Positions 14,733 to 15,855 of a DNA stretch of 64,000 nucleotides are shown piece by piece (position 1 is the first letter of the stretch; each line of letters opens with the position of its first letter). The notes under the pieces are model-generated. The model saw only the letters and a list, made by a program, of their open reading frames with translations. It did not search any database and was not told the DNA's origin. The position numbers and the translations under genes were made by a program. Source of the DNA: Escherichia phage Antha. The stretch lies in the sequence record PP925826.1; one strand, written 5' to 3'.

Positions 14733-14769
14733 AATGAGAATAATTATCATTTGCATTATCATTCAATGA
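14733..14769. repeat. Fur-box-like palindrome pair
   Basis: aatgagaataattatcatttgcattatcattcaatga; AATGAnnnTCATT architecture. Confidence 0.4.
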
Positions 14770-14930
14770 CTTATAAGACTTTTGATTATTTTCTGAGCAA
14801 GAAAGGTACTACTCACAACAAAACAGATAAATTCTAAGTAAATCAATGGCTTGGCAAGTCTAAACATCTATATACACCTTGCCAAATGAAATGATCTGGC
14901 GTGAAATAGTGCCACCCGTGGAAGATAGCT

Positions 14931-14949
14931 GATAATGATTATCATTTGC
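14931..14949. repeat. Fur-box-like palindrome
   Basis: gataatgattatcatttgc vs Fur consensus GATAATGATAATCATTATC. Confidence 0.45.
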
Positions 14950-15304
14950 ATATTTTCTATACTATAAAACCGACTAAAAATCAAGATAATTCTGATTTAT
15001 TGCGCTTTTAAGAAAGTAGGCTCAACAAATAGGATATTTAGGGGTAACAAATAGGCTATAACTATGGGGGCAATAGTATGAAAAATCATCTATTCAGATA
15101 TAAATAATTTTGCGCAATAGTGGCAATATTTTTCTTGACAAGAAAGATTTCTTTGTGTTCACATAGCGCCCCCCTGGAAGGTGGCGCATTATGATCATCA
15201 ATGTCATTATTCACCATGTTTATTATTGCATAGCTTATTACTTAGCTTATATTATAGCCAATGTTCTAAACATTAGCTAATAATAACGCACCGCAACAAT
15301 GTAA

Positions 15305-15480
15305 GGGATACAATATACAATTGTATATTGTTGCGCTTGCAGTTGTTGCAAGCTACATAAACACAAATAATAACTATCGGTGATGGTTATTATGTGGGGG
15401 GGTGTAGTTGCGTTATTATTAGCCGCCTATGTGTCCGGCATAGGCTGCTAATGATACGCTTGCGAATTATATTTCTTGTT
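15305..15480. repeat. cluster of four perfect or near-perfect palindromes/hairpins
   Basis: 22-bp palindrome acaatatacaattgtatattgt; gcttgca..tgcaagc; ataataac..gttattat; attagccgcctatg..cataggctgctaat. Confidence 0.55.
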
Positions 15481-15780
15481 ATAGTTATTGTATGAAATGA
15501 TTACTTAGGTAATAGATAGGAAGGTAAAGGTTAGATCATAAATAGATAGGATATGAATTATTTAGTAATGTTACTTTGTGCAATAATTCAATAGATTATA
15601 GTTATAGTTTTAAAGGTTAGATAGATTATATTTAGCTTAGTAATGATTTATATTAGTTATTGTTGTTTAATATAAGGTTATCAATGAGATAGTAACAGTA
15701 AGTTATAAATAAAAGTAAGATAATTAGTTTTAATTTAGTTAGATAACTTATTATTTTATAGGTTAGATGGTCATAAGTTA
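15481..15780. repeat. C-depleted low-complexity tract with short direct repeats
   Basis: almost no C on + strand; recurring aggttagat, atagatagg, tagtaatg. Confidence 0.5.
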
Positions 15781-15855
15781 AGAATGATTATCATTATTGC
15801 ATTATGCAGTTTATTGCATAAATAATCAGCTATAAATAAGAATGATTATCATTTA
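15781..15855. repeat. two Fur-box-like palindromes
   Basis: agaatgattatcattattgc and aagaatgattatcattt separated by tgcattatgca inverted repeat. Confidence 0.45.

Follow-up and report, generated by a model that had tools for sequence, protein, structure and literature searches.

Why should a virulent coliphage carry, in DNA without any credible open reading frame (ORF), a series of sites that resemble the boxes of the host regulator Fur? The question is raised by a 1.7-kb region (14431-16100) of Escherichia phage Antha, within the 64,000-nt stretch of record PP925826.1 that we analysed in full and call the window. This phage belongs to Justusliebigvirus (phi92-like, Stephanstirmvirinae), and the region, which lies between two minus-strand gene blocks, is 93-95% identical in other Justusliebigvirus phages, including EmilieFrey, VivaForever, inny, and Paula (BLAST). 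Its equivalent in the records of relatives is un-annotated or bears just a repeat or terminator feature. Fur boxes are known as promoter operators of iron genes. A preliminary description of the window had pointed to four sites (A to D) that look like the E. coli Fur box and had suggested that they might make nearby transcription iron-responsive, titrate host Fur, or bind instead a phage regulator of similar specificity. All four sites are present (Table 1) and, scored on either strand against the 19-bp E. coli Fur consensus GATAATGATAATCATTATC, they match it at 15 (A), 17 (B), 16 (C), and 14 (D) of the 19 positions. That description had missed a weak fifth site (15187-15211), a second cluster at 26486-26600 (hereafter cluster 2), the location of sites A and B inside the direct terminal repeat (DTR) of the virion DNA, and the parallels with phages T5 and lambda. 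Taking all these elements into account, we propose that the boxes are arrays which capture host Fe2+-Fur without occluding promoters, a first-ranked reading to which we would give, from the sequence evidence, a probability of about 0.55. Binding of Fe2+-Fur to the arrays, summed over all the roles it might have, seems quite probable.

The number of boxes is far beyond that expected from base composition. Compared with first-order Markov simulations, the 64 kb contain nine matches of at least 15/19 (0.57 expected) and six of at least 16/19 (0.04 expected). The 13-mer core AATGATTATCATT, with at most one mismatch, occurs 13 times against an expectation of 0.27. The boxes could in principle be a chance product of non-coding DNA that is AT-rich (35% GC) and full of other repeats. 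Nevertheless, the two ORF-free regions of the window (3.2 kb) hold seven sites of at least 15/19, against 0.047 expected in simulations that keep the dinucleotide make-up of these very regions, and the sites stand out as conserved islands in otherwise diverged spacers. A chance origin, to which we attribute a negligible probability, is thus effectively refuted. In the complete genome of Salmonella phage UAB_1, matches of at least 16/19 are found solely at these loci and at one intragenic site, with none in the other ~83 kb. As calibration, we scanned in the same way three intergenic regions under classical Fur control, from the ent/fep cluster of E. coli K-12. These native operators, of the footprinted class, scored 13 (fepA-fes), 16 and 15 (fepD-entS), and 15 and 15 (fepB-entC) of 19; the phage sites, with 17, 16, 16, 16, 16, 15, 15, and 14, thus belong to the upper end of this range (14-17 vs 13-16).

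The arrangement of the boxes also follows the grammar of Fur. Matches offset by 6 bp occur at 14730/36/42, 14925/31, 15832/38, 26524/30, and 26553/59, and overlapping sites at this spacing are the signature of E. coli Fur clusters (PMC2189734). Site A consists of three overlapping matches (14, 15, and 14 of 19) and scores 13/14 for the 7-1-7 unit, whereas site B (TGATAATGATTATCA) contains, as TGATAATNATTATCA, the sole perfect 7-1-7 Fur unit (14/14) in the 64 kb. AATGA/TCATT half-sites are separated by spacers of 3 bp and of 9 bp, that is, with a difference of 6 bp, so hexamer arrays fit better than a dimer operator of fixed spacing. We also compared the sites by eye with those of ArgR, Zur, MntR, IHF, and DnaA, none of which fits as well as Fur.

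To follow the boxes across relatives, we used an alignment of eight genomes: four of Justusliebigvirus (the window, inny, Paula, and UAB_1), three of Phapecoctavirus, of which phAPEC8 and ZCKP1 group apart from phiWec179, and one of an unclassified Klebsiella phage, making four lineages overall. The spacer is mostly unalignable between genera, with the DTR boundaries and several islands conserved. Site A keeps 15-17/19 in all eight genomes, the number and order of its hexamers varying by lineage and every version remaining Fur-like; site D keeps 14-16/19 in all eight, with TTATCATT invariant, and site B 14-17/19 in seven of them. Site C is retained in Justusliebigvirus and the Klebsiella phage and lost in Phapecoctavirus (12/19), and the weak fifth site is conserved solely within Justusliebigvirus. 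Such turnover of boxes with preservation of the motif is as expected from selection for binding by one factor, and selection appears to be the best explanation for the maintenance of boxes in ORF-free DNA of this phage.

Two boxes with an already known history provide further links to Fur. Strong Fur sites have been described at 'nohA' and 'nohB' in E. coli, the first of them gel-shifted by purified Fur (Chen et al. 2007, PMC2189734) and also selected in vivo by Fur titration (FURTA) (PMC2189734). We located these sites, which turn out to be the boxes next to cos in the Qin and DLP12 prophages. The Qin nohA site ATGATAATCATTATCA is identical to the right end of lambda and ends 37 bp from the cohesive end, and the two 7-bp arms of site B are identical to those of the lambda/Qin box TGATAATCATTATCA. 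In lambda the box occupies 48447-48465, and in the stretches examined of Qin and DLP12 it occupies ~1600-1615 and 3096-3114, respectively, just upstream of the motif GGGTCCT. We take this motif beside the lambdoid boxes to be the cosQ sequence. The literature that we found does not discuss the connection of the nohA and nohB sites with a genome terminus. The second link concerns cluster 2, whose core AATGATTCTCATT is the reverse complement of AATGAGAATCATT, a sequence found 20-66 bp upstream of iucA in ~800 plasmids and known as the classical aerobactin operator. The identity of the boxes as Fur boxes is thus upheld at the sequence level, by scores equal to or higher than those of bona fide operators, by arms shared with lambda/Qin, and by a core shared with iucA; from this we infer that they may be occupied by Fur in vivo.

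Table 1. Coordinates of the Fur-like sites and of accompanying features in the window.
Feature	Sequence	Position	Strand	Score or remark
DTR of virion DNA		14680..15022	.	by homology
Site A, array of TTATCA/GAGAAT-type hexamers	AATGAGAATAATTATCATTTGCATTATCATTC	14730..14765	.	
Site A, string quoted previously	aatgagaataattatcatt	14735-14753		
Site A, best 19-mer		14736-14754		15/19
Best sigma-70-like DTR promoter	TTGGCA-17-TAGACT	14857..14885	-	reads inward to first gene
Site B, best site	cTGATAATGATTATCAtttgcat	14925..14952	.	17/19
Site B, string quoted previously	gataatgattatcatttgc	14931-14949		
Site B, best 19-mer		14931-14949		17/19
Weak Fur-like site	CATTATGATCATCAATGTCATTATT	15187..15211	.	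two overlapping 14/19 matches; after GC hairpin
Site C	AAGAATGATTATCATTATT	15780..15798	.	16/19; followed by invariant inverted repeat TTATGCAnTTTATTGCATAA
Site C, string quoted previously	agaatgattatcattattgc	15781-15800		
Site C, best 19-mer		15780-15798		16/19
Site D	ATAAATAAGAATGATTATCATTTAA	15832..15856	.	13/19 and 14/19 matches 6 bp apart (15832/15838)
Site D, string quoted previously	aagaatgattatcattt	15838-15854		
Site D, best 19-mer		15838-15856		14/19
Second cluster, 5-6 Fur-like boxes		26486..26600	.	in ORF-free region 25507-27036
Hypothetical gene, 140 aa		14008..14430	-	first gene inward of left DTR copy
Phage_30_8 family gene		16067..16559	-	PF06019, E = 9e-29; last gene before right-end non-coding region
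88-aa gene, GC-rich		25958-26224	+	strand opposite to all neighbours; beside cluster 2

The boxes can also be placed relative to the ends of the virion DNA. The annotated 343-bp left and right DTRs of phage UAB_1 map to positions 14680-15022 of the window, a 342-bp DTR has been determined with PhageTerm in phage BME3 (PMC12210895), and the boundary is also where the record of Klebsiella phage phi1_175008 stops. The boundary motifs, TAACGCGATTTT on the 14680 side and GCT|CAACA on the 15022 side, are invariant in the eight genomes. By homology, sites A and B are inside the 343-bp repeat, site B at 73 bp from the left virion end and site A at 53 bp from the right one, so that each end of the virion DNA carries an array within 53-92 bp of the terminus. 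Sites C and D lie ~760-830 bp beyond the DTR.

Cluster 2 lies much farther inside, ~11.8 kb from the right virion end (termini again by homology). It contains a wide palindrome (AAATGAGAAAATTCTCATTT), followed by boxes at 26506, 26530, 26559, and 26582 that match the consensus at 16, 15, 16, and 16 of 19 positions, those at 26530 and 26559 having their 6-bp-offset partners. Its place, directly after a conserved GC-rich element, is kept in phages tuntematon, ESCO5, and FBKp34, where single boxes have been swapped for other Fur-like boxes. In distant BLAST searches with cluster 2, T5-like phages were matched exactly over the boxes. T5 itself (NC_005859) has five or six Fur-like boxes (15-16/19) at 9545-9725, inside the annotated injection stop signal (iss), in the left terminal repeat and by the 7.9% nick, and the same cluster is found in phage EC104 at ~9.5-9.7 kb (1405-1580 in the stretch examined). 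Moreover, T5 positions 9658-9685 match site A at 24/25 positions, and within dmp, at 231-245 bp from the end of T5, there is a perfect 7-1-7 unit (TGATAATCATTATCA). A scan of IMG/VR with the paired pattern AATGANNNTCATT was discarded: the pattern was too loose, the matches listed were mostly uninterpretable metagenomic contigs, and the scan told us little apart from recovering T5-sized and 146-150-kb contigs.

The boxes might bind a phage-encoded protein of Fur-like specificity, for instance a regulator, a terminase small subunit or other packaging factor, or a protein for replication or entry. The DTR sites are near the cut boundaries, where one would look for the recognition repeats of a terminase, the motif extends past the Fur consensus and is repeated (TGAnAATnATTATCATTTGCAT is present twice in the DTR), the non-Fur flanks around site A are invariant, and the identity with T5 is extended. 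In addition, a highly conserved 88-aa gene adjoins cluster 2 on the opposite strand (93-100% identical across Justusliebigvirus and Phapecoctavirus). However, the boxes are not confined to the cut site, which does not agree with terminase recognition repeats (pac or cosB-like): the same motif occurs 11.8 kb from the end, in T5-like siphoviruses, and at the lambdoid cos, where Fur binding has been shown. The variable half-site spacing (3 and 9 bp) and the turnover of boxes also fit Fur arrays better. Outside Stephanstirmvirinae the 88-aa protein occurs in just a few others; it matches nothing in Pfam or PDB and belongs to a PHROG of unknown function. Searches of Pfam, PHROGs, and PDB were thus uninformative about it as a candidate regulator, and a single-sequence AlphaFold model was unusable (pLDDT 37.6). 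A tblastn search of E. coli Fur against 50,697 phage records gave 34 matches, none of them from Stephanstirmvirinae. The window holds no homologue of any of 17 T5 first-step-transfer proteins, and none of the T5 transfer proteins A1/A2. With the same arrays in unrelated phages that have no first-step-transfer protein in common, the common denominator is the host. The alternative of a phage regulator, already contemplated in the preliminary description, is weakened by the lack of a phage Fur homologue and by these arrays in unrelated T5-like phages, and we consider a phage-encoded ligand unlikely.

All the evidence for Fur binding applies equally if the boxes are classical Fur-repressed operators, through which host Fur would gate early or non-coding transcription in an iron-responsive way. 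Their targets would be the inward DTR promoter, weak plus-strand promoters that have the first hexamer of a box as their -10, or transcripts passing cluster 2. The best DTR promoter is framed by sites B and A; a promoter-like sequence of 9/12 (GTGCCA-16-GATAAT) takes its -10 from the first hexamer of site B; site C abuts the -35 of a minus-strand TTAACT-17-TAAAAT; and cluster 2 is 230-340 nt downstream of a near-consensus promoter (26227-26255). Most native E. coli Fur clusters, 83%, overlap sigma-70 -35/-10 elements (PMC2189734). Nevertheless, the promoter-like sites overlapping phage boxes occur at the frequency of shuffled sequence (11 vs 12.0 expected, consensus scan) and show no conservation between lineages. 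In neither the consensus scan nor a position weight matrix scan of the eight aligned genomes is a strong or conserved sigma-70 promoter covered by a box. The DTR promoter, with a score of 11.5 in Justusliebigvirus genomes and a position loosely conserved in Phapecoctavirus, lies between sites B and A as part of the inverted repeat TTGGCAAG...CTTGCCAA and is overlapped by no Fur-like box; relative to it, site A is at ~+85 to +117 and site B at ~-80 to -100, which is poor for occlusion. The strong early-type promoters AAAAAATAWTCTTGACA at 26216-26233 and 25580-25597 are not overlapped either. Finally, no iron-homeostasis gene adjoins the boxes, which are flanked by hypothetical early genes, the Phage_30_8 protein, and a NADAR protein. 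As no strong promoter is covered and no iron gene is adjacent, classical operator repression is therefore unlikely as the role of the boxes and represents the weaker sub-case of Fur binding. The proposal that they make nearby transcription iron-responsive finds, accordingly, no support in the anatomy of the locus.

If Fur capture is the function, Fe2+-Fur dimers would, in iron-replete cells, occupy the hexamer arrays and spread along them on the entering and replicating phage DNA. Two consequences, not mutually exclusive, might follow. First, with ~ten strong boxes in each genome and more copies made as the DNA replicates, Fur would be titrated in the manner of FURTA, and the titrated Fur would leave host iron uptake de-repressed, providing supply for the iron-dependent ribonucleotide reductases of the phage. 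Class Ia and class III ribonucleotide reductases are annotated in relatives. Second, the occupied arrays might label the genome ends, and an internal or entry boundary, in an iron-dependent way. The titration of Fur, already considered in the preliminary description, is plausible; the downstream role of its capture is speculative.

Several observations weigh against Fur capture, beginning with some of those already mentioned. The absence of strong or conserved promoters under the boxes, in contrast with the 83% of native clusters, and of iron-homeostasis genes beside them counts against it. The flanks of site A, CAAATATCAATG and ATTCAATGACTTA, are invariant across lineages, which is unexplained by Fur. 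Behind the extended identity with T5 (24/25, including TTTGCATT) there could be, instead of selection for Fur, a more specific ligand common to both phages or a horizontal transfer. The DTR coordinates were carried over from relatives by homology, and the literature searched names no fur-mutant phenotype for these phages. DNA modification, possible in this phage group, could alter binding, and titration may matter if host transcription stays active enough. Neither did our literature search find any paper linking Fur to phi92-like phages, T5 iss, or cosQ.

A more ambitious possibility, which we regard as rather improbable, is that Fur-box arrays constitute a shared cis-module by which linear coliphage genomes have their ends and their entry boundary marked, with iron-loaded Fur as an architectural host factor. 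The lambda cos, the phi92-like DTR, and the T5 terminal repeat with its injection-stop region would be examples of it. The comparison for such a factor is IHF at lambda cosB. The steps in which architectural Fur would take part are the processing of ends, the termination of packaging, or a staged entry of DNA.

Why these arrays matter can be seen from their contrast with the usual operators of iron genes: they are conserved, promoter-free, placed ~50-90 bp from both ends of a virulent phage, and present also at T5 iss and lambda cos, a pattern that points to an unrecognised interaction of a host global regulator with phage DNA. If capture takes place, the iron uptake of the host may be reprogrammed by large lytic phages that encode no protein for this purpose. 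Should Fur act instead at the termini, DNA entry or packaging would have gained a new host factor, and the nature of the T5 injection stop signal, a question since 1968, could be put to a concrete and cheap test. If the cis-module were true, iron would gate phage development, and the long-unexplained T5 signal would be accounted for in part. For phage therapy, the efficiency of infection may hinge on iron status, which is sharply different in laboratory media and host tissues.

The region 14431-16100 is flanked by small hypothetical early genes, and most early genes are orphans. The 140-aa gene on the left gave no match in a Pfam search, and annotated relatives have hypothetical genes at its place. 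The intrinsic terminator of the Phage_30_8 gene, at 16067-16085, is invariant in all eight aligned genomes. We rejected a 46-aa ORF (15830-15970, minus strand) that has a good Shine-Dalgarno sequence (AAGGAG) and terminates across site D; phAPEC8 does not conserve this ORF, which is therefore probably not a gene. Rfam searches of the whole window at the gathering threshold, and of both ORF-free regions at E<=1, retrieved noise alone, and a scan for tRNA and tmRNA genes found none.

Other elements of the two ORF-free regions deserve to be recorded. Between the repeat boundary and the first gene, two copies of ...TTATTTtnAACACACCCCtTT (14511-14535 and 14588-14612) belong to a block (CCTATCAATTATTCTATATATACC...) which hardly varies between genera and in which the genes at the left end may have their real early promoter or leader. 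The mid-DTR inverted repeat TTGGCAAG-N21-CTTGCCAA (14851-14888) makes promoter-like hexamers on both strands, and the TTGGCA in its left arm is kept in all lineages. Between the terminal repeat and sites C and D there is a conserved multi-hairpin element (15276-15447) in which a long-range stem (GCTAATAATAACGCA / TGCGTTATTATTAGC) surrounds three hairpins and is followed by a fourth; RNAalifold predicted 57 pairs from six genomes, 12 of them with compensatory double changes, and several invariant G-U pairs favour the plus strand. This element has no Rfam match; it may be a non-coding RNA or else, at the DNA level, a structured signal for an origin or for packaging. Near cluster 2, an 18-nt inverted repeat places AAAAAATAWTCTTGACA on each outward-reading strand (25580-25597 and 26216-26233), a pair that looks like divergent early promoters with UP-like A-tracts, one copy apparently driving the minus-strand early block from 25506 and the other the plus-strand GC-rich element. 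The near-consensus sigma-70 promoter TTGACA-17-TATACT (26227-26255) has a GC hairpin in its spacer; the GC-rich element extends ~220 nt after it, to 26485, and ends just before cluster 2. Within this element, 26300-26384 is 81-85% conserved far outside the subfamily (Cronobacter phage CR9, Pectobacterium phage phiTE, Klebsiella phage BIS47); it is a candidate small RNA, without match in Rfam. Directly after cluster 2, three direct repeats of ~67-79 nt (AAaTTGAAcTTTTCATTTT...AAAAACTTTAAATAA, 26618-26838) have a layout recalling that of the direct repeats beside the T5 box cluster. Outside these regions, a 16/19 match with a 6-bp-offset partner at 38449-38473, followed by a DnaA-box-like TTATCCACA, is inside a 937-aa ORF for a UvrD/REP-like helicase; it is conserved in UAB_1 and probably incidental. 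Several records named 'Campylobacter phage' (host C. jejuni; MG065645 and others) are 93% identical to this E. coli phage region and are likely mislabelled or contaminant genomes.

How do these arrays compare with known systems? The Fur clusters of E. coli (iucA, fepD-entS, fepB-entC; PMC2189734) resemble them in the 19-bp consensus, the 7-1-7 unit, and the 6-bp overlap, and arrays of the hexamers GATAAT, GAGAAT, and GCAAAT are common to both. Unlike the E. coli operators, the phage boxes occupy ORF-free DNA, inside or beside the DTR, and no iron-gene promoter. They are, in short, Fur sites as regards sequence and clustering, and not as regards promoters and iron genes. Host-regulator boxes in phages have precedents: Pho and NtcA boxes in cyanophages and the Fur-regulated stx1 promoter. 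A fur box also occurs upstream of sitABCD on lambdoid coliphages (PMC6969025). All these phage genomes, as the window, carry sites of a host global regulator, but theirs sit at promoters of specific cargo genes and tie these genes into the host regulon, whereas the window has arrays with no cargo gene or promoter evident. The resemblance with FURTA is that multicopy Fur-box DNA de-represses the Fur regulon; yet FURTA is a laboratory artefact of plasmids, and its use by a replicating phage is a proposal.

The iss of T5 (repeat region 3, with DRC repeats and palindromes) is similar to the window in having five to six boxes with a spacing of ~23-36 bp in ORF-free DNA, ~9.6 kb from the end, and to cluster 2 in its AATGAnnnTCATT-type boxes beside direct repeats, the window having its cluster at 11.8 kb from the end with three ~70-nt repeats. 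They differ in that T5 has DnaA boxes and DRD repeats at iss, whereas the window is not enriched in DnaA boxes (10 TTWTNCACA motifs vs 12.2 expected, none in either ORF-free region). T5 has, in addition, 10-kb repeats and a proven two-step DNA transfer; the DTR of the window is just 343 bp. Davison's comparative study of iss attributed the stop to the DnaA boxes and never mentioned Fur. In one screen, overexpression of FeoB or YdiE protected BL21 from T5, which the authors explained by Fur repression of fhuA (PMC7553319); this result is equally compatible with an increased Fur occupancy on T5 DNA. Lambda and Qin differ from the window by their single box, without arrays, at the cohesive-end site of temperate phages, but share with it a strong box with the arms of site B near a terminus, at 37 bp in lambda and at 53 and 73 bp in the window. 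The nearest precedents for the arrays described here are the cos-proximal Fur box of lambda/Qin and the DRC/palindrome cluster of the T5 iss.

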